From a virus (Duplodnaviria > Caudoviricetes), in the IMG/VR virus record IMGVR_UViG_3300035135_001460, positions 1-45,523 of that record: a stretch of DNA of 45,523 nucleotides; one strand, 5' to 3'. Under the pieces are notes generated by a model that did not search any database, had not been told where the DNA came from, and worked only from the letters and a program-made list of their open reading frames with translations. Position 1 is the stretch's first letter. Every line of letters starts with the position of its first letter. The translations under genes were made by a program, and so were the position numbers. Shown here piece after piece: positions 4,138 through 23,220 of this stretch.

Positions 4138-5118
4138 ATGAAACTCAAAGCAATCGCTGCTGCCGCGCTGGCAGCACCCCTAGTGGTGGCATGTGGTTCC
4201 ACCGAGAGTGCAAAGGCACCATATAAATTGAATGGTGCAGGTGCTACATTCCCTGCTCCTTATTACAATGCTGTTCTTGGTGACCTTGCTAAGGCAACTG
4301 ACAACCAAGTAAACTATCAAGCAGTTGGTAGTGGTGCTGGTGTCCGTCAGTTTACTGCTAAGACTGTTGACTTCGGTGCCTCTGATGGTGCTGTGTCAGA
4401 TGCTAAGCAGAAACTGCCGATGGTTCACATTCCCATGACTGGTGGTGCTATTGTCCCTGCTTACAACTATCCTGGTTGTGATGCCAAGATGACACAGACT
4501 CAACTCGCTGATGTCTTCCTTGGCAAGATCACTAACTGGTCTGAATTTGGTTGTGCTGACAAGAAAATCTTGACTGTCTATCGTTCTGATGGTAGTGGCA
4601 CTACCAAAGGTTTCACTAACTCTCTGTCAGCATTCTCTCCTGAATGGAAGAAGACTGTTGGCACTGGTAAATCAGTTCAGTGGCCTGTTGGTGTTGGTGG
4701 TAAAGGTAACTCTGGTGTTGCTGGTACTATCAAGAATCAACCTGGCGCTATTGGTTACCTGAACTATGGTTATGTAACTGGTGATAAGTTCCAACAAGTT
4801 GCACTTCAAAACAAGGCAGGCAATTATGTCACAGCAAATGCTGAAACATCTGCAGCAGGTTTATCAAAGATCGTCCTGGACGATCAGCTTCGTGGTGCTG
4901 ACGCTAACCCTGCTGGTGCCAATGCATACCCTATTGTCTCCCTTACTTGGATCCTAGCGTATCCTGAGTATGAGAAGAATGATGATGTGAAGGATATGCT
5001 TCGCTGGATGCTGACACCTACCCAACAGGGTAAGGCAGACGCTCTTGGTTATGTTCCTCTCCCCGAAGAACTTCGTCAAAAGGCACTTGCTGCTGTTGAT
5101 ACTCTTCAGACTCCCTGA
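4138..5118 (+). CDS. pstS: Phosphate ABC transporter substrate-binding lipoprotein
   Basis: Lipobox LVVAC; GAGATFPAP, YQAVGSGAG, DFGASD, RSDGSGTT, YPIVSLTW motifs. Confidence 0.97.
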   Translation: MKLKAIAAAALAAPLVVACGSTESAKAPYKLNGAGATFPAPYYNAVLGDLAKATDNQVNYQAVGSGAGVRQFTAKTVDFGASDGAVSDAKQKLPMVHIPMTGGAIVPAYNYPGCDAKMTQTQLADVFLGKITNWSEFGCADKKILTVYRSDGSGTTKGFTNSLSAFSPEWKKTVGTGKSVQWPVGVGGKGNSGVAGTIKNQPGAIGYLNYGYVTGDKFQQVALQNKAGNYVTANAETSAAGLSKIVLDDQLRGADANPAGANAYPIVSLTWILAYPEYEKNDDVKDMLRWMLTPTQQGKADALGYVPLPEELRQKALAAVDTLQTP

Positions 5119-7556: not shown

Positions 7557-7983
7557 TTAAGTGCTCCTCTGTGAGTATGAGAAATTCTAGTCTTCTATCT
7601 GCACACCACTCTCTCGCTGCTTCCCATTTCGCTTGGTTGATGACATATGTAGAAACTTCGTTCAAATAACGTGGTGTTTTACGTTTGGGTACTTTTGGTT
7701 GTACTGTTTGTTTCTTGGGTTTGACTTCAATTAAGTATTTCTTGATAGTATTGTTCTTATTTCGGATTTTGATGTAAAAATCAACAAAGTATCGGTGAAT
7801 CCTACCGTCTAAAGGAGAACGATAAGGAACAACAATTTCTTCACTACCCCATTCAAGCACATGATCATGGTCATCACACCATTTCATGAATTTAAGTTCC
7901 CATAATGATCTGTATATTACTAGTCTCGGATCGCCTTTGTATTTCTTTGGATTCTTTGGTTGGAACTTGCCAGAATACGCCAT
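7549..7983 (-). CDS. gp4: Head completion nuclease gp4
   Basis: MAYSGKF.PKNP.KYKGD..IYRSLWE, WGSEE..VPY.SP.D..HRYFVDF, IEVKP, NQAKWEAA. Confidence 0.95.
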   Translation of the reverse strand: MAYSGKFQPKNPKKYKGDPRLVIYRSLWELKFMKWCDDHDHVLEWGSEEIVVPYRSPLDGRIHRYFVDFYIKIRNKNNTIKKYLIEVKPKKQTVQPKVPKRKTPRYLNEVSTYVINQAKWEAAREWCADRRLEFLILTEEHLNV

Positions 7984-8013
7984 AAATATAATTACAACAA
8001 GTACTTCTATTTA
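7981..8013. promoter_or_regulatory. Pair of oppositely oriented late promoters between gp4 and gp54
   Basis: CATAAATA at 7981-7988 (+) and TATTTA at 8008-8013 (TAAATA on -). Confidence 0.65.
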
Positions 8014-8019
8014 GAATTA

Positions 8020-8709
8020 ATGTCCATATCTAAACTGAGGGGGATATTTAATACTGACAAAGGTGGATCATATTCTAATGAATATGAGGTAAACTTCTCC
8101 TTTGATAATACTTTTAATGCTGATCTTTTGAGTAGATTAAAGTATTATGGATTTAATCCAACATCTACTACTGAAGGTGCCTATAGTGATATGATGTTTT
8201 TGTGCGATGAAGCATCATTGCCAGGAACTTTTGCTGCTACTAATGAGGTTGATGGTGTATATGGTGGCAGACTAATTCAATATCCTCATGCTAAACTTTA
8301 TAATGATATACGTTTGAGTTTTATTCAAACTAATCAACTGAATCCTCAAAAATTCTTTGAGGCATGGATGGGAAATATGTTCCCAGAGTATAGTATGAAT
8401 GAAGCGCAGGGAACTGGTGAGATTCAACCAGCAGAGAGAGATAGAAGAAGAGCATTAACTAACACTACAGGACTTCGTTATTATAAAGAAATGACCTGCG
8501 CTAGTATTAGAGTGCAGAAAACTTATAAAAATAGTAGTAGTCCATCTGGAGAAAATTCGTGCTATTATGATATGTACGAAGCATATCCTTATAGTATTGA
8601 AAGCGTGCCATTATCGTATGGCGCGAGCACACTAAATAAATTGAGAGTATCATTTAGATACGAAAAGCATGTCGTGATCTTCTACGATCAAAAAGGAGCA
8701 GAATTCTAA
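8020..8709 (+). CDS. gp54: Baseplate tail-tube initiator gp54 (tube-protein fold)
   Basis: N.YEV, CDEASLPG, KFFEAW, EAYP.SI..VPLSY..L.VSFRY; start taken at ATG 8020. Confidence 0.8.
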   Translation: MSISKLRGIFNTDKGGSYSNEYEVNFSFDNTFNADLLSRLKYYGFNPTSTTEGAYSDMMFLCDEASLPGTFAATNEVDGVYGGRLIQYPHAKLYNDIRLSFIQTNQLNPQKFFEAWMGNMFPEYSMNEAQGTGEIQPAERDRRRALTNTTGLRYYKEMTCASIRVQKTYKNSSSPSGENSCYYDMYEAYPYSIESVPLSYGASTLNKLRVSFRYEKHVVIFYDQKGAEF

Positions 8710-8723
8710 TTATTTTTTGAACT

Positions 8724-9437
8724 ATGTCATTACCTCAGATTAATACTCCCGTCCATGAATTGAAAATTCCATCTACAGGGAGAAAAGTAAAATACAGACC
8801 ATTCGTAGTCCGAGAAGAAAAGATTCTTCTCCTTGCATTGGAGTCTGAAAATCAGGAAGAAGTTACAGATGCTATTATCCAGATTATTGGTAATTGCATT
8901 CAAACAAAGATTGATTTAGATAGTCTCTCTACATTTGATGTTGAGTATATCTTCCTCAATGTTCGTGCCAAATCTGTTGGGGAAATCCTGGAATTCTCTA
9001 TCACATGTCCTGATGATGGTGAGACGCAGGCAGAGGTTGAAATCAATATTGATGATATTCAGGTAGTCAAGGATAAGGGTCACACTGATACCATTGATCT
9101 TGAGAATGGATATTTTGTTAAGATGAAATATCCTACCATGAAATATATCATGGAAAAGAAACCCGATGATAAGAAAAGTCTCATTGATAGTACATTTGAA
9201 TATGCTGTTGAATGTATTGACACTATCTACAATGATGAAGAGACATGGGAAGCAGCAGACTCTACAAAGAAAGAACTTGAAGAGTTTGTTGAACAGATGA
9301 ACTCTAAGCAGTATCAGAAACTTCAGTCGTTCTTTGCAACGATGCCTAAGTTATCTCATACAGTTAAGGTCACTAATCCTAAGACTGGTGTTAAGTCTGA
9401 TGTCACAATTGAGGGACTGGCAAATTTTTTCGCCTAG
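8724..9437 (+). CDS. gp26: Baseplate hub assembly protein gp26
   Basis: MSLP.I..P...L.IPSTG..VKYRPF.V.EEKILL.A, FDVEYIFL..RAKSVGE, FF.TMPKL, IEGLANFF. Confidence 0.92.
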   Translation: MSLPQINTPVHELKIPSTGRKVKYRPFVVREEKILLLALESENQEEVTDAIIQIIGNCIQTKIDLDSLSTFDVEYIFLNVRAKSVGEILEFSITCPDDGETQAEVEINIDDIQVVKDKGHTDTIDLENGYFVKMKYPTMKYIMEKKPDDKKSLIDSTFEYAVECIDTIYNDEETWEAADSTKKELEEFVEQMNSKQYQKLQSFFATMPKLSHTVKVTNPKTGVKSDVTIEGLANFFA

Positions 9438-9464
9438 CGGTTTTCCAGAATAATCTGGAGAACT
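9422..9464 (+). promoter_or_regulatory. Putative -1 programmed ribosomal frameshift signal
   Basis: In-frame slippery heptamers A-AAT-TTT (9422-9428) and T-TTT-TTC (9425-9431), 8-nt spacer, 10-bp hairpin GTTTTCCAGA-ATAA-TCTGGAGAAC (9440-9463). Confidence 0.65.
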
Positions 9465-9613
9465 ATTATCGCCTAAATTTCAATCTCATGCAACACCATA
9501 AATATAGCTTGACAGAGATTGAAAATATGATGCCGTGGGAGCGGGATGTTTATGTGAGTCTGTTAGTTGAATTCATTGAAAAAGAAAACGCACGCAGAGC
9601 CGCACAACAGTAA
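9428..9613 (+). CDS. gp51: Baseplate hub assembly catalyst gp51-like (-1 frame relative to gp26; not in ORF track)
   Basis: Hand translation FRLAVFQNNLENYYRLNFNLMQHHKYSLTEIENMMPWERDVYVSLLVEFIEKENARRAAQQ*; first ATG only at 9488; stop overlaps next ATG (TAATG). Confidence 0.85.
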   Translation, partial: FRLAVFQNNLENYYRLNFNLMQHHKYSLTEIENMMPWERDVYVSLLVEFIEKENARRAAQQ

Positions 9614-12096
9614 TGACGAGAAGATCACCCAGCGACCAAAATCAGACAGGGAAACCAGAACCTAAAACTCCCATGGGAGGAAACCAACAGGTTCCTCAGG
9701 CTGCTGGTAATCCTCGCTTTCGTAATCCTGGGTTGGATCCTAGTCCAGACCCTAAGATTGTTGTAAAGGCAATTAATCCTCCTGTTACTCCCGATCAAGT
9801 TGTTGGGATGGCAGAGATGCCTTCTGCTGCAACTCTGGATCTTCCTAAGATTCAGAATATCAAGATTCCTCCTGTAAAGAATAAGACCATTCAGGGTCAT
9901 CTGAAGGCGATTGAAGCTAAGATGACTGCGACTGAGAAGTTGATGAAGGATGTTGTCAAACTTCAGAAACTGCAGATTATTACGGAGAAAGAATTATTTG
10001 AGCGCAAGAGAGAGTTATATCAAAATACATTTGAAGAATATCTATTAGATAAGACTGTTGATTTTGAAAATCCTGATGATCCAGGTGGGGCAAATTCAAT
10101 TAAAAAGGGTCCTGGTGGATTTGGATTCCCATTTGGTGGTGGTCGTCGCCGCAAAAAAGGTCGCCCACCTGGCGGTGGTAGTGGTGCTGGTGCAGCAGCT
10201 ACTGCTGGTGCTGCTACAACTGCGGCAGAGAGAATGGCGGACGGGCAAGCTTCGGGATTGCCCAATCTAGGTACTGATTATAAGAAACAAGAACAGGACG
10301 CTATTAAAAAAGCTGAAGAGTTCCGAAGGCAGCAAGAACAAAAAACAGGTGTTCCTGCTAAAGGTAAACCTGTACCCGATCAGGATGAAGCTGAAGCAGT
10401 ACCAGAAACTCCTGTGCTTCCTGAACGAGCACCATTGAGGGTTCCGCCTGGACTTCCTATACTTGATCCTAAGTTTGTTCCTCCATTTGATATTCCTGAT
10501 GTTATTACACAAGCAGGAGTACCTCCAACTCCTCCAGTGGTGACAATTCCTGGTTATGATATGAGAGTTAAGACTCATCAGCAGGACTTAGCTGATGCTA
10601 TTGAGACTTACATTGAAAATAATCCTGGCAGTGAATTTGAAGTTAAACTTGGTCGTGGTGCCAGAGTTGATACTGGTCATTTAATCAAGAAAAAAGATGG
10701 AAAGATTTATATTCACGAACCTCTTACTCAAGAGCAATTAGTTTTAATAGGTGCTGGAAATTTCCTTAATTTGAGCGGTTGGATGCCAGTCGTTCCAAGA
10801 AAAACTGGGCGTCGTACTCCAACTGTTCCTGGTACTTCACTCCCTACAGTTACTCCTACAAGAAAAGCACCAACAGCAGCACCAGTTCCTGTACCTGGAA
10901 CAAATACTATTAGTCCTGGTCCTGGTAGAACACAACAACCAGCACAGCCACTATCACCTGTGACTGCTAGGGGTGCTGGTCTTGGTGGTAGTAAACAAAT
11001 CATGAAGCAGAGCAGACCTGTCAATTCTAAGGAAGCTCAAATGCAGGTTAATCGTGATATAATGGAAGCGGAAATGCTGGGGCAGGATCCTAGATTTGTA
11101 AAAATGTTGATGGACCAGGGATTTAATTTCTCTGCTGGTTCAAATGTAATGCCTCGGACTAGGAAAATGTTCCAGTCAAAGAGACAACCTGGAGTATCTT
11201 TTGAAACTAACATGAATCTCTCAGATTTTCTGGGAGCTGGTGGTGGTTTTGGTCCAAGACCATTATCAACAAAAGAAATATTACAGCAGATGAAACAATC
11301 TTCTTTTGATCAATATAGCAGTCCAATTGGTCCTATGCCAAAAGCATCTGGTGGTATTGGTGATATTGATTTGTATAGTAGTAAATCATTGAATTATTTC
11401 AGAGGAATGTCTAGTAAAATTATGCCGATGGCAGATGGTGGATTCATGGGTTGGTTTAACAAGGGCGTTAATACTCGTATTCCAAATGAAGCAAAGGCAA
11501 AATTTGGTAATCCATTCTCATATTTCCAGAAGAATCCAGACCCCACAACACTCTTTGGCGATGATGCTTTGCAGAGAGGTCAGAGTAATAAAAACTTTAA
11601 GGCAGGCAAGAAACCTTCTGTATTTGGAAGACCAGATAGAGCGTTTGGTCTTGATATAGTTGATTCAGTGAAGCAGAGAAGATTGGTGACAGTTCCAGCA
11701 TCTCAAGGTGGTCCTATGTCTGGTCCTACACCAATCACACGGGAAATAATTAAGAGACCAATTCGTGCTTCTGCACATCCACTTATTATGCTCGCAGAAA
11801 TGATTGTCAATGAATTGATTAATCCACAACCAACTGCAGTATATGATCAGGTTACTGGTCCTAATGCATATTATAATGCTCCTGGTTATAAGGGTCCGAT
11901 GCCATCACAGAATCTTGAGAATGCTCAGAGTAGCATGATGTCTGGTAGTGATCCAAAAGTTGAGATTAAACCATTGCCGCCTGATTATATTAAGATTCCT
12001 GCTAAGAAGAAGGCACCTGATTTTGTTGGCACTGAATCACCTGATATTGAGATGAGATCAAGTGTGTTTACTAGATCCTCAACACATATTGATTGA
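9613..12096 (+). CDS. Large Pro/Gly-rich virion protein, tape-measure-like (gp29 position)
   Basis: Directly follows gp26/gp51; coiled-coil segment near aa 95-145, ASGG/MADGG motifs, otherwise low complexity. Confidence 0.55.
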   Translation: MTRRSPSDQNQTGKPEPKTPMGGNQQVPQAAGNPRFRNPGLDPSPDPKIVVKAINPPVTPDQVVGMAEMPSAATLDLPKIQNIKIPPVKNKTIQGHLKAIEAKMTATEKLMKDVVKLQKLQIITEKELFERKRELYQNTFEEYLLDKTVDFENPDDPGGANSIKKGPGGFGFPFGGGRRRKKGRPPGGGSGAGAAATAGAATTAAERMADGQASGLPNLGTDYKKQEQDAIKKAEEFRRQQEQKTGVPAKGKPVPDQDEAEAVPETPVLPERAPLRVPPGLPILDPKFVPPFDIPDVITQAGVPPTPPVVTIPGYDMRVKTHQQDLADAIETYIENNPGSEFEVKLGRGARVDTGHLIKKKDGKIYIHEPLTQEQLVLIGAGNFLNLSGWMPVVPRKTGRRTPTVPGTSLPTVTPTRKAPTAAPVPVPGTNTISPGPGRTQQPAQPLSPVTARGAGLGGSKQIMKQSRPVNSKEAQMQVNRDIMEAEMLGQDPRFVKMLMDQGFNFSAGSNVMPRTRKMFQSKRQPGVSFETNMNLSDFLGAGGGFGPRPLSTKEILQQMKQSSFDQYSSPIGPMPKASGGIGDIDLYSSKSLNYFRGMSSKIMPMADGGFMGWFNKGVNTRIPNEAKAKFGNPFSYFQKNPDPTTLFGDDALQRGQSNKNFKAGKKPSVFGRPDRAFGLDIVDSVKQRRLVTVPASQGGPMSGPTPITREIIKRPIRASAHPLIMLAEMIVNELINPQPTAVYDQVTGPNAYYNAPGYKGPMPSQNLENAQSSMMSGSDPKVEIKPLPPDYIKIPAKKKAPDFVGTESPDIEMRSSVFTRSSTHID

Positions 12097-14072
12097 TGTT
12101 AAAAGCAAAGACTAAAATGATAGAGAGAGATTCGGAGGCATTTGCTTCCGAAGTCTTTGCTGTAGCTGATAATATTACACCGATTGCTATTGCTAGTGTT
12201 GATAGTATTCTTAAATTAGAAGATGTAGAAGATCTGCAGGTTGTTCCCGAGCAGAAAGTAAAGCAACTAATTGTAGAGAATAAGTCTACCAACCCGATGA
12301 GTAAATTCTTCATTAGGTTGGGAACTTATCTTGATTCAATGGAGAACTTCCTTTCTGAAATGCATTCAAATTATATGAAAGGAATTGAGCAGAAGAGATC
12401 TTTGCATGGACTTGAGGATAGTGATCAAAAGCAAAAAACTGCACGCGCTAAAAGAACTGCTAGAAAACTTGCTGTTAATAGAGCTATTGATTCTATTTTT
12501 GGTGGCACAAAGTCTGATTTATATGATATGCCTATTGGACTTATGGCAATGAACTTCCTTACTAGGGGATTTGAGGATAGAATTCAGAGACAGGCAGAAT
12601 CTATTGTAATTGTTCCATATCAACCAGTTGCTGGTCAACTTAAAGCGAAGGGTGAGACAGAAGATGAATTTGTTAGTGGTTATAAATTAACTTCTGCATA
12701 TGGTCATCGTTGGGGTAAAATGCACGGCGGTGTTGACATTGGTGTTCCTGTGGGAACAATGTTTGCACTTAAAAAGAAATCTATCGTCAAATTTGCTGGT
12801 TATCAGAATCCCGATGATCCATCAGTGGGATATGGATTACTTGTGGATTCTTGGGTGCCATCTTTAAATAAAATGTTTAGATTTGCTCACCTCAGTGAAG
12901 TTGGGGTGAAGGAAGGTGATACAGTTGATGCTGGTAAAGTATTAGGTAAGTCTGGCAATACTGGATTATCTACTGGTCCTCACTTTCACATTGAGGTTCA
13001 CCCTGAAGTCAGACCTAATTATGGCGGAGAGAATCCTATGCCATATATTGATTATGTGATTGCTGGTGAGGAGATGATGGAGCAGAAATCTGAGGGATCT
13101 ATTGAAAGAATTGGTAGAGTCATGGTCGGTGAAGCTGGTCCTGAATTTGTAATTCCAATGAGTCAGATGCCAATCTTTGCTCAACTTATGATGGAGGAGA
13201 AGATTAAATCTTTAAACCCTTTATATAATCCTCCTTTTGGTAGATTTGATAATCTTGGTGTTGAGAGACAAGCTGGATTTACTAATACTATGATGGCAGC
13301 GGGCGGTATTACTATCAATAGTAATCATAAAACTGCTGCTAAAAGACTTACAAGTTATTTTCCTACAGCAGAACCCATTCACATTGCTGCTGCTATGGGT
13401 AACTTTGAAACCGAAGCACCTGGACTAAAACCTAATACTTATCAGATGGGCAATGGTCCTGGTCGTGGTATTGCTCAGTGGGAAATAATCCATCCTGGAA
13501 ATCCTACTGGAAGATGGAACACTGCAGAGGAGAAGTATGGTCCTAATGTTATTAACAGTTTAGAAGATCAGTTGAGGTTCGTGAAGTGGGAGATGGATAC
13601 AGGGCACCAGATACCTGATGGTGAGGGTAGCACTAGACCTAACTTACCATATGGTAATGCTGCTAAGAGAGTATGGTTGGGGACTGAGAATATTGAAAAG
13701 GCAACTAAAGAATTTATGGAAGGTTATGAATCACCTTCTGTACCACATTGGACTCAGAGGTTGGCAAATGCTATGTTCTTCCTTGAACAAATGCCTAACA
13801 TGTTGGGTAAACCTAAAACTCCTCCTGTTCCTCCTACTGTGACTAATGATGAAGTTCAAAGACAGATTGAAAAGAATCTTCGTGATCGTAATACGATGAG
13901 TCCTGAAGATTTCTTTGGAACTAAACCAGTGTTCTCTTCTAGTTTAAATAGTATACCAGGCAATGAGCAAATGCAAATTGCTAATGAGACACAAGAGCAA
14001 TTCTCATTTGACAATGTTAAAGGTGAGATCGTCGCACTCTATCAACCAACAGTCTATTATACTGAGTCATGA
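12096..14072 (+). CDS. Tape-measure-like virion protein with M23 peptidase and phage tail lysozyme-like domains
   Basis: M23: HGGVDIG..FAHLS..V..GD.V..G..G.SGNTG.STGPHFHIEV; VGEAGPEFVIP motif; tail lysozyme-like: AAAMGNF..E..GRGIAQW..LEDQL.FV..EM..F..YE.P..R.ANA. Confidence 0.8.
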   Translation: MLKAKTKMIERDSEAFASEVFAVADNITPIAIASVDSILKLEDVEDLQVVPEQKVKQLIVENKSTNPMSKFFIRLGTYLDSMENFLSEMHSNYMKGIEQKRSLHGLEDSDQKQKTARAKRTARKLAVNRAIDSIFGGTKSDLYDMPIGLMAMNFLTRGFEDRIQRQAESIVIVPYQPVAGQLKAKGETEDEFVSGYKLTSAYGHRWGKMHGGVDIGVPVGTMFALKKKSIVKFAGYQNPDDPSVGYGLLVDSWVPSLNKMFRFAHLSEVGVKEGDTVDAGKVLGKSGNTGLSTGPHFHIEVHPEVRPNYGGENPMPYIDYVIAGEEMMEQKSEGSIERIGRVMVGEAGPEFVIPMSQMPIFAQLMMEEKIKSLNPLYNPPFGRFDNLGVERQAGFTNTMMAAGGITINSNHKTAAKRLTSYFPTAEPIHIAAAMGNFETEAPGLKPNTYQMGNGPGRGIAQWEIIHPGNPTGRWNTAEEKYGPNVINSLEDQLRFVKWEMDTGHQIPDGEGSTRPNLPYGNAAKRVWLGTENIEKATKEFMEGYESPSVPHWTQRLANAMFFLEQMPNMLGKPKTPPVPPTVTNDEVQRQIEKNLRDRNTMSPEDFFGTKPVFSSSLNSIPGNEQMQIANETQEQFSFDNVKGEIVALYQPTVYYTES

Positions 14073-15679
14073 TCAATCCTAAGTCTTTTATAGTTGGGTC
14101 GGGCAAAGCAGTCAAGATCAGAGCATTGACTAAGATGATTCCTGCTGCAAAAGTTAAGCAGGAGTTGAAGAATTTTGCTGCCATGTTTGTGCCAATTATT
14201 CCACCTTGGATGTTGGAATTTGAGCAGGACGAGAAGCATTATCTGGTGCCAAGAAATCAGATGGATGTATTGGTATCTGATGAAGATGTTGACGACTGGA
14301 ATTATCTGTTAGAGAGATTCAATAATCTTCTCGCGAATCTGACGAAGTTACTAAACAATGTCAGGAAGGTTGATTATCATAAGATCGTTTATAACAAATT
14401 ACTTGAGCGTGAGATTGAGAACAGAAAGATTAAACTCACTGAAAAATTATTAGAGAAGACTGAGGAGAAAGAAGAGGAAGCTAAAAGTAAACTTTCGCCA
14501 AATATTTCTGGTGAAGACTTAAATAATTTCTTAACTGTGTTAGCTGCTGCTGCAGCAGGTGCTACAGGTGCTGCTGATCCATTGGATGCAGCAGCAATAA
14601 AAGATGCTAAAGCATCTGGTGCAGATTTAGTTGCTGCTGCTCACCTTGCCACGCTTGAAGCTTCTGGGACACAGAATGTTGCAGATGTATTTCAAGTAAT
14701 TCTTAATAGATCAAAGAAGAGAAAGAAATCAATAGCTGAAGTAATTACTGCAAGAGAGCAGTTCTCACCATATTCTGCTGCAATCTATGGAACGAGTGCA
14801 GATACAAATGCTGCATATGTATACGGTGATCTAGGTGTTACTAAGAAAGAAATTTTTGAGATTGCTGCCAAACCAAATGGATTGCAGTTATTGGTTGAGA
14901 GATTTGGTAATGGTAATGCTGCTATTGCTCAAGAAGTGTTAGATGACTTCAAGAGTGAAGGACCACTCTCACAAGAAGCAGCAGAGTTTGTTGGTGGTGC
15001 TGAATACTTTATGGGATATGAGACAGGTGGATTGAATGAAAGGAAGAGGGGTCCTGGTGGTAATTTCTTTAGAGATGCATATGCTACTGGTGCTATTATT
15101 CTTCCACAATTATTTGACGTAAAGCATAACATATATTATAATGTCAACGATAAAACTGATGATCTTGCTCAGTTTATTATAGATAGACCTACGGTAGTTG
15201 ATATGCAAACAGTAGGTGAACCACTGATTGTTATTCCTACTGAACGACCCATCGGTCAGCAGATCTTGAATATCTTATTCAAACAACCTTTTAAGAAGGT
15301 TGAGATGATTTTTGAGAGAAGTAAAAAAGAACAACAGTCAAAGGCACAAACACCCATTCAAAATAATACTACTTCTATTACTAGATCACCCATTCCAACA
15401 TCTAGTAGACCTGAATCAAATTATCTCCAACGTAAACAGCAACAATCATCATTGTACGATGATATGAAGGTAGAATCTATCACAAGAGACACTTCTGTTG
15501 ATAGTATTCAAAATAGTCTCATGAAGATTGATACTAAGATCTCGGATCTTACTAGACGATCACAAACTACCACTCGCAGAACAATATCTAATATAGATAC
15601 TGTATCGCAAACCACTCAGAATGTTTTTGGTGCAAAAGTAATTTTAATGACACAAGACATCTACGCAACAGAGGAATAA
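14069..15679 (+). CDS. Tape-measure-like virion protein with SleB/Hydrolase_2-like cell-wall hydrolase domain
   Basis: N-terminal coiled coil; LATLEAS..VADVFQVILNR..IAEVITAREQFSPY resembles the SleB catalytic region. Confidence 0.65.
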   Translation: MINPKSFIVGSGKAVKIRALTKMIPAAKVKQELKNFAAMFVPIIPPWMLEFEQDEKHYLVPRNQMDVLVSDEDVDDWNYLLERFNNLLANLTKLLNNVRKVDYHKIVYNKLLEREIENRKIKLTEKLLEKTEEKEEEAKSKLSPNISGEDLNNFLTVLAAAAAGATGAADPLDAAAIKDAKASGADLVAAAHLATLEASGTQNVADVFQVILNRSKKRKKSIAEVITAREQFSPYSAAIYGTSADTNAAYVYGDLGVTKKEIFEIAAKPNGLQLLVERFGNGNAAIAQEVLDDFKSEGPLSQEAAEFVGGAEYFMGYETGGLNERKRGPGGNFFRDAYATGAIILPQLFDVKHNIYYNVNDKTDDLAQFIIDRPTVVDMQTVGEPLIVIPTERPIGQQILNILFKQPFKKVEMIFERSKKEQQSKAQTPIQNNTTSITRSPIPTSSRPESNYLQRKQQQSSLYDDMKVESITRDTSVDSIQNSLMKIDTKISDLTRRSQTTTRRTISNIDTVSQTTQNVFGAKVILMTQDIYATEE

Positions 15680-21691: not shown

Positions 21692-22888
21692 ATGTTACAG
21701 AACAAACAGTCTATTGAACAAAAGTCTTCTCAGATTACTGAGAATATTAATGAGGTTAGGTGCAGCATTACAGATAGCTCTTTTAGAGTTTTTGAGACAT
21801 GCGCTGTTGACGATAGAAACTATGAGATGCGCCACTATCGTGGTTCAATGATCCGATGGCAGGAGAACGGTGCAGTTCTTCTTATTGCTAGAAGTGCTGA
21901 TCTTACTCCTAATGAAGGATACCTTGATGTTAAATCAACAGGGTATATGCACTTTAAGTCTGATCATGACATCAAACTCACTGCTGAGGGACATACTGTA
22001 ACGGGTGGCGGAGAAGGTGGTAGTAGTGAAGAGAAGAGCGTTGACATTTTTGGTACAGGTGATGTAGTAATTCAATCTAATGGTAAAGGTGGTGTTTACA
22101 TTACTGCTGCTAAGGACATTGAATTAAATGCAGGCGGTAGTATTAAACTAAAAGCAGCAGAGCAGATTAGTTTGAACACGGGAAGTCAGGATCCCGTACC
22201 ATTTGGATTGACAGAGAGTGTTGGTAGTGGTAAACTGAGTATCTCCACAGGTCAATATGAACTGTCCACAACCAGTTACAAAGAAACTGTTAGTGGTTCA
22301 AAGATGGAGGAGAATTATGGTGAGGTAATTCAGGATCAGAAGTTAAACATTCTAGAACCTGCTGCTCTTGGAGAAGGAGCACACCTTACTACAGTTGAAA
22401 CTGTGGGTACACTCCACCATAAGGTTGGTCATGATTATATTCTTGAAGTTGATGGCAAGATGAAGGTCAAAGTCAATAACAACCCCATTAAAAAGGTTGG
22501 TCCTTTGTTCTTAGAAATGCCTATGGAAGCATTGAAGTATGAGGTCATGGGTAGTAGAACATCTACTTTGAATCCAGATCCTATTCTTCAGTATGCTCAA
22601 GACTTCGTTGATATTCCCATGGGTAATTCTTATTGTCAGGTTGATGTTGCTGCTCCAGGAACGTCAGCATGGTCTGCTGGATCTCTCACAAAAGGAGATC
22701 TTGTTATGCAGGCAACAGCAGTTGGTAGTATTGGTCTTCAAACTGGACCCACACCAGCAAACATGATTCTTTTAATGAATGATGGTGGATCTATCTTACA
22801 GCAAGCAAACGGTGCCATGGGTATGATTCTCATGACAGCAACAAAAGTAATCAACGCAACGGCAGGAGTTGCTATTAATCTAAACTGA
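21692..22888 (+). CDS. gp5 C-terminal beta-helix-like spike protein
   Basis: H.RGS.I.W.ENG motif and repeated short beta-strand units (I.A..DIELNAGGSIKLKA...ISLN), ends AINLN. Confidence 0.55.
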   Translation: MLQNKQSIEQKSSQITENINEVRCSITDSSFRVFETCAVDDRNYEMRHYRGSMIRWQENGAVLLIARSADLTPNEGYLDVKSTGYMHFKSDHDIKLTAEGHTVTGGGEGGSSEEKSVDIFGTGDVVIQSNGKGGVYITAAKDIELNAGGSIKLKAAEQISLNTGSQDPVPFGLTESVGSGKLSISTGQYELSTTSYKETVSGSKMEENYGEVIQDQKLNILEPAALGEGAHLTTVETVGTLHHKVGHDYILEVDGKMKVKVNNNPIKKVGPLFLEMPMEALKYEVMGSRTSTLNPDPILQYAQDFVDIPMGNSYCQVDVAAPGTSAWSAGSLTKGDLVMQATAVGSIGLQTGPTPANMILLMNDGGSILQQANGAMGMILMTATKVINATAGVAINLN

Positions 22889-23220
22889 TGACACTTGGTA
22901 AACATTGTTTCACGGAGGTGTATGAATGCCCCCGAGAACTTCTTGATGATGAAAACTATTTAAAAGAGCATATCATTCAGTCTCTAAATAAAACTAGTTT
23001 AACCTTATTGGACATTTCGTCTCATAAGTTTGAACCACAAGGTGTTACTATAGTAGCATTACTCTCTGAGAGTCACATCAGCATCCACACTTGGCCCGAG
23101 CGAGGGTCTGCCGCCCTAGATGTTTTTACATGTGGGGACACGAATCCAGAAGTAGCGATGATGCATATGATTGAGGCACTCAAGGCGAGAGATTACAACC
23201 TAAAATGTATCAAACGCTAA
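22888..23220 (+). CDS. speD: S-adenosylmethionine decarboxylase proenzyme (pyruvoyl-dependent family)
   Basis: HKFEPQGVT..LLSESHISIHTWPE.G.AALDVFTCG signature with E-S self-cleavage site. Confidence 0.92.
   Translation: MTLGKHCFTEVYECPRELLDDENYLKEHIIQSLNKTSLTLLDISSHKFEPQGVTIVALLSESHISIHTWPERGSAALDVFTCGDTNPEVAMMHMIEALKARDYNLKCIKR

Follow-up and report, generated by a model that had tools for sequence, protein, structure and literature searches.

Here we report an analysis of a gp26-like gene and of the reading frame overlapping its 3' end in a viral DNA record (Caudoviricetes; IMGVR_UViG_3300035135_001460), which was examined over its full 45,523 nucleotides, hereafter called the window. The gp26-like gene occupies positions 8724-9437 of the + strand and encodes a 237-aa protein corresponding to the short form (TAC-N). 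It was assigned by a match to the Pfam family PF12322 (T4_baseplate, E 6e-73), by alignment with positions 5-232 of phrog_150, and by similarity to T4 gp26 (E 4e-8). Immediate context is provided by a gene of the tail-tube family upstream (7960..8709, + strand; PF23849, E 2e-28; phrog_45), and the neighbourhood of gp26 comprises gp53, gp48, gp2, gp4, tail tube, and gp5. Among the matches listed, gp26 shares 44-54% identity with most cultured Synechococcus and Prochlorococcus phages. The gene neighbourhood and the gp26 identities point to a T4-like cyanophage. The window also carries auxiliary metabolic genes for a phosphate-binding-protein family (4138-5118, PF12849) and S-adenosylmethionine decarboxylase (22888-23220, phrog_3125), both typical for marine cyanomyoviruses. 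An NCBIfam search with the gp26 frame and the -1 frame returned no match, a PDB profile search with gp26 returned caspase-3 noise only (E 0.3 or worse) and no solved homologue, and the Atlas held nothing usable for gp26 or for the 827-aa ORF located downstream.

The 3' end of the gp26 gene reads GCA AAT TTT TTC GCC TAG. As the initial annotation had noted, it contains two in-frame slippery heptamers, A AAT TTT at 9422..9428 and T TTT TTC, encoding Phe-Phe, at 9425..9431 (+ strand); the TAG stop codon (9435..9437, + strand) follows one codon past the slip site. A count over 14 window ORFs (8611 codons) gave 15 strict in-frame heptamers having A or T in their second triplet, two of which are those at the gp26 end. 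To evaluate their conservation, we collected 203 loci, comprising 32, a further 11 from cultured cyanophages, and 160 picked by gp26 alignment; seven truncated loci were dropped, and the 196 usable ones gave 183 distinct junctions. Another 80 loci (L055-L134), found with the -1-frame peptide, were excluded from every count, because such a query favours the expected frame. The motif T TTT TT(C/A) precedes the gp26 stop in all 183 junctions, as T TTT TTC in 182 and as T TTT TTA in one, and the gp51-like frame lies at -1 in 182 of them, including 152 of the 152 new junctions selected by gp26 alignment, so that the alignment of relatives proposed as a check favoured both the slippery site and the frame relation. 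Just 13 of the 183 junctions carry the other heptamer, A AAT TTT, which was therefore ruled out as the conserved slip site; it is limited to a lineage and probably incidental, and only one of the two candidates initially named is retained.

Several observations indicate that T TTT TTC, a 0-frame heptamer of the X XXY YYZ type, has been kept beyond the need of the protein. Internal Phe-Phe dicodons of the same genes have the shape T TTT TTC in only 2 of 182 cases, and all 183 junctions have T as the last base of the codon preceding the terminal Phe-Phe, though six different codons occur there. When the gp26 proteins were clustered at 70% protein identity into 32 representatives, the six-T run was found in 32 and the -1 frame in 31.

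As originally described, positions 9413 to 9613 form an open -1 frame, which ends with a stop codon at 9611-9613. Its part downstream of the slip site (9431..9613, + strand) encodes the gp51 C-terminal domain (TAC-C), matching phrog_634, annotated as 'baseplate hub assembly catalyst' (E 3e-29), and positions 228-276 of phrog_150. The product computed for a slip at either heptamer is 296 aa long. Among the relatives, the -1 frame remains open for at least 45 codons past the slip site in 181 of 182 junctions (the read of locus L187 runs out without a stop codon), and it is closed upstream by a stop within 10 codons of the slip site in 154 of 182. The near-invariant residues of this frame are Leu8 (180/182), Tyr11 (177/182), Asn15 (176/182), and Phe16 (182/182).

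Comparison with T4 provided insights into the relation between the two frames. T4 gp26 (208 aa) and gp51 (249 aa) both belong to PF12322 and phrog_150, T4 gp26 corresponding to the short form of the window and T4 gp51 to the long form with the C-terminal domain. T4 gp51 covers positions 13-280 of phrog_150 in a single frame, whereas in the window the 0 frame ends and the -1 frame resumes at about position 232; the window -1 frame aligns with T4 gp51 residues 200-247 (E 2e-6). By these alignments the counterpart of T4 gp51 is the whole predicted fusion, not the -1 ORF alone, and T4 gp51 is a full gp26 paralogue that carries the C-terminal domain rather than a small separate domain. Because T4 gp51 joins an in-frame gp26-like domain to this same C-terminal domain, the 237/296-aa pair of the window would equal T4 gp26 and gp51. 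In T4, genes 26 and 51 are separate, divergently transcribed, and lack a slip site (the gp26 3' end, GAG TTC TTT, has no T-run and needs no slip), whereas in the window phage one gene would yield both products. In the available text of PMC3004832, gp26 and gp51 of T4 are listed as hub assembly chaperones, and the word 'frameshift' does not occur; T4 gp51 is described there as required yet absent from particles, and gp26 as reported in the hub. T4 gp26 (L054:1303-1929) also weakly matches the gp28 family phrog_1140 (E 9e-4), a hint of a third T4 paralogue.

Two predicted stimulators flank the slippery site. Upstream, a Shine-Dalgarno-like GAGG (9411..9414, + strand) is located 10 nt before the slip site, within the spacing of 9-14 nt given for such stimulators of -1 frameshifting in the available part of PMC5009743. 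The Glu residue five codons before the slip site is encoded by GAG in 154 of 182 junctions, versus a background of 32%, and ranks at the top of 19 conserved Glu columns, a bias that was measured with no second Glu-Gly column as control and with Glu-Gly codon-pair bias uncontrolled. This codon choice yields GAGG or GGAGG 10 nt upstream of the heptamer, and GAGG is present in 28 of the 32 representatives.

Downstream, the 10-bp hairpin claimed in the initial annotation folds as described and extends to 11 bp (9439..9464, + strand), starting 7 nt past the heptamer. The folding energy of positions 9432-9475 is -15.3 kcal/mol (z -4.1), and none of 200 shuffles was as stable. In the relatives, a hairpin is found 5-8 nt downstream of the heptamer, with its position kept and its register not. 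In a random subset of 90 of the 182 junctions, the 39 nt starting 5 nt past the heptamer fold at -10.6 kcal/mol, versus -3.3 kcal/mol for synonymous recodings (mean z -3.8), and z ranges from -1.0 to +0.25 in seven windows farther downstream. A stem of at least 7 bp occurs in 60% of the 182 junctions versus 3-20% at five control positions, and in 21 of the 32 representatives versus 2 and 4 in controls. One major register, that of the Prochlorococcus phage P-SSM2 among others, is shared by 82 sequences, and another by 14, including the window and S-RSM4. In a 62-sequence alignment, covariation in the major register exceeded that of all 500 shuffles, a result that relatedness can inflate, and the register of the window showed no excess (122 of 500 shuffles reach its value), so that the covariation expected of the hairpin was seen for the major register and not for the window's own. 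One pair of the major register is U-A in 60 of the 82 sequences, G-C in 7, A-U in 6, and unpaired in 9. A stable structure with a conserved position is present within the 5-9 nt downstream spacing of programmed -1 frameshift sites.

Based on these comparisons, we consider it very likely that the junction is a conserved -1 frameshift signal, through which one gene would encode both the 237-aa gp26 and a 296-aa gp26-gp51 fusion, the predicted short and long tail assembly chaperones. In favour of this reading, 182 of 183 junctions keep the -1 frame and the T-run is invariant; synonymous codon choice is constrained; the -1 frame codes from the shift point onward (Synechococcus phage S-SCSM1 being the single exception), and no start codon in it is common to all; and the two frames are collinear with the in-frame gp51 of T4. 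Under the proposed mechanism, a minority of ribosomes would shift back by one base as two tRNA-Phe slip in tandem on U UUU UUC. The shift would be aided by base-pairing between GAGG and 16S rRNA and by pausing at the hairpin, as in the dnaX/IS layout, and the non-slipping ribosomes would terminate one codon later, producing the 237-aa gp26.

The predicted pair resembles gpG and gpGT of phage lambda in that a short and a long product (237 and 296 aa) with a common N-terminal domain, mirrored by the two genes of T4, would be made via a -1 frameshift close to the 3' end of a gene that lies downstream of a tail-tube-family gene. It differs in that sequence comparison gave no homology of the window gp26 to lambda G or to other solved chaperones, and in the heptamer, which is T TTT TTC in the window and G GGA AAG in lambda. 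The proposal that gp26/gp51 is the G/G-T equivalent is supported by the predicted short/long pair and agrees with the upstream tube gene, but the downstream ORFs carry no tape-measure identification from family searches. In lambda, the ratio of gpG to gpGT is 30:1, the tape measure is the binding partner of gpG, and the tube protein is that of the T domain (PMC5009743, available part). By analogy, a coat of the short form would cover the tape measure protein, which the long form, the rarer of the two, would connect to tail-tube or hub assembly. By the same analogy the 296-aa fusion is probably a minor product; the initial suggestion that gp51 is made mainly as a ~296-aa fusion would stand for the source of the gp51 domain and fail for the output of the gene.

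Synthesis of a separate small gp51 by translational coupling or re-initiation just past the gp26 stop, at an ATG in codon 3 or, in the window, at CTG 9455 or ATG 9488, appears improbable. Of the 182 junctions, 124 have an ATG at codon 3, counted from the shift point, and likewise 124 have one at codon 19, GenBank records carry a separate gp51 gene, and stop and start codons overlap as TAATG or TGATG in five phages (S-CRM01, phi-ST2, YB07, D510, and YC), which fits coupling as a side route. However, no start is universal: in 22 of 182 junctions, including those of the closest relatives of this phage, the first 18 codons contain no ATG, GTG, or TTG, and the annotated starts differ or gp51 is missed. 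In the clade of the window phage, codon 3 is Val and conserved residues lie upstream of ATG 9488. This codon is indeed the first ATG of the -1 frame, as originally stated, but the homology begins at the shift point, which places it 19 codons into the homology rather than 11. CTG 9455 was rejected as a likely start, the Leu being conserved in 180 of 182 junctions but its codon varying among 62 aligned junctions; it also sits in the stem. Coupling further has to contend with the 25-nt distance from GAGG to the codon-3 ATG, which is too far for initiation, with the position of that AUG inside the hairpin stem in the major-register lineage, and with the invariant T-run, which it leaves unexplained.

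The invariance of the six-T run would equally suit slippage of RNA polymerase, rather than the ribosome, with the addition of an extra base, an explanation that we regard as very improbable. RNA polymerase slippage usually requires longer runs, and this one is short and frame-locked as T TTT TTC, and the Shine-Dalgarno-like motif and hairpin on either side of it are spaced as for a ribosomal slip; the single RNA contig is gap-free, which is weak evidence because contigs lose rare variants. That the split is a sequencing error in what is truly a single 296-aa ORF, as the homopolymer at the junction and some fused database proteins might suggest, has a negligible probability. The gp26 stop is kept in 183 distinct junctions, including cultured phage genomes, and contigs from three other independent runs (X3, X4, and X15; two DNA libraries and one RNA library) bridge the T-run with zero gaps, so the junction is no assembly indel. 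The RNA-library contig was rejected as proof of transcription. Proteins P0013, P0014, P0018, P0021, and others were likewise rejected as natural gp26-gp51 fusions, since each comes from a single contig and the frame switch falls at varying places, as indel errors would give; those four (299-301 aa) are likely indel artefacts that can be mistaken for natural fusions.

Outside the cyanophages, ten distant T4-like phages from Straboviridae, Ackermannviridae, and unclassified groups all have their best C-domain match in the -1 frame, eight at E<1e-6 and two weakly, at about 0.01. The full heptamer is present in six of the ten and a shorter T-run in four. In the latter, phiMAM1, D510, YC, and SM5 (L050-L053), the -1 relation is kept with the shortened sites G GTT TTC, A CTT TTC, G GCT TTC, and G ATT TTC, where just 4-5 T or T TTC make the heptamer incomplete; these sites suggest single-tRNA slippage or coupling. 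In the exceptional cyanophage S-SCSM1 (L033:1190-1260), known from two records of one genome only, T TTT TTC is kept while 11 nt inserted past the gp26 stop interrupt the -1 frame and shift the gp51 domain to +1; either a +1/-2 variant or independent initiation could account for this, as could an error.

Frameshifting in several T4-like groups was reportedly described by Vladimirov, Gautam, and Davidson (Virology 2022;566:9-15; PMID 34826709), who are said to name genes 26 and 51. Two later papers that cite this work state, in their available text, that poly-T is a known -1 slip signal in TAC-N genes of T4-like phages (PMC12846349) and that some T4-like phages, instead of a frameshift, have two genes, one short and the other longer and fused (PMC10885494). 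The TAC-N/TAC-NC chaperone genes as paraphrased there belong to the same system as the window pair, which has the PF12322 N-terminal domain and a C-terminal domain homologous to the T4 gp51 C-terminus. The novelty tentatively raised for the gp26/gp51 frameshift is therefore withdrawn, T4-like chaperone genes and poly-T slip signals being credited by these citing papers to Vladimirov et al. 2022, and the window case appears to be an instance of a known system, T4-like G/GT-type chaperones apparently being in print already. Our literature search for a cyanophage-specific report, judged mainly from listings and with subscription papers outside its scope, found none, which does not imply absence. 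The frameshift cassettes of E. coli dnaX and of IS elements, as described in the available parts of PMC6771820 and PMC5009743, share with the window a Shine-Dalgarno-like motif 9-14 nt upstream, a heptamer, and a 3' stem-loop; they differ in slipping on Lys-Lys rather than Phe-Phe, and the window stimulators are predicted.

The gp51 frame also contains, downstream of ATG 9488, the late-promoter core ATAAATA (9498..9504, + strand), which likely serves the next gene and is present in 169 of 182 relatives. The underlying codons are biased accordingly, CAT being used in 179 of 182 cases versus 79%, and AAA for 173 of 180 Lys versus 62%. The cyanomyovirus late promoter motif is given as NATAAATA in the available text of PMC2984593. 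All seven window copies of ATAAATA lie on the + strand (733, 7982, 9498, 16927, 21636, 23718, and 38401), several of them 40-115 nt ahead of structural ORFs. In a promoter and terminator scan, counts were at chance level, and the exact sequence TATAAATA was absent.

A broader reading, which we put forward only tentatively and do not favour, is that T4-like cyanophages possess a complete, family-wide, and previously undescribed dnaX/IS-type cassette of GAGG, U UUU UUC, and a 3' hairpin, where the hairpin folds in multiple registers and buries an in-frame AUG in most lineages, and these 60 codons also accommodate a late promoter. Since the hairpin would bury this AUG, a single piece of RNA would favour slippage and at the same time prevent gp51 from being made on its own. 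Possible additions to the known system are the pair of stimulators and the late promoter lying within the gp51 frame, provided that Vladimirov et al. 2022 do not report them already. The real gp51 product probably carries the wrong annotation throughout one of the most abundant families of marine phages, because all 11 annotated cyanophage records examined either carry a separate truncated 'gp51' or miss gp51 altogether. The cassette is also a naturally available system in which -1 frameshifting by cyanobacterial ribosomes can be tested.

Between gp51 and a tail gene of phrog_350, the window contains three large ORFs of 827, 659, and 536 aa (9613-15679). The initial annotation called the genes that follow gp51 tape-measure-like, which was not confirmed: the 827-aa ORF (9613..12096, + strand), at the position expected for the tape measure, has no Pfam, PHROG, or NCBIfam match and no assigned family, and T4 gp29 showed no similarity to any of the three ORFs. 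PHROG tape-measure matches of the 659-aa ORF are confined to its M23 or lysozyme domains. The three ORFs are candidates for tape-measure or ejected proteins. The 827-aa ORF is rich in Pro and Gly, the 659-aa ORF combines M23 peptidase and phage tail lysozyme domains, and the 536-aa ORF has a weak match to a cell-wall hydrolase.
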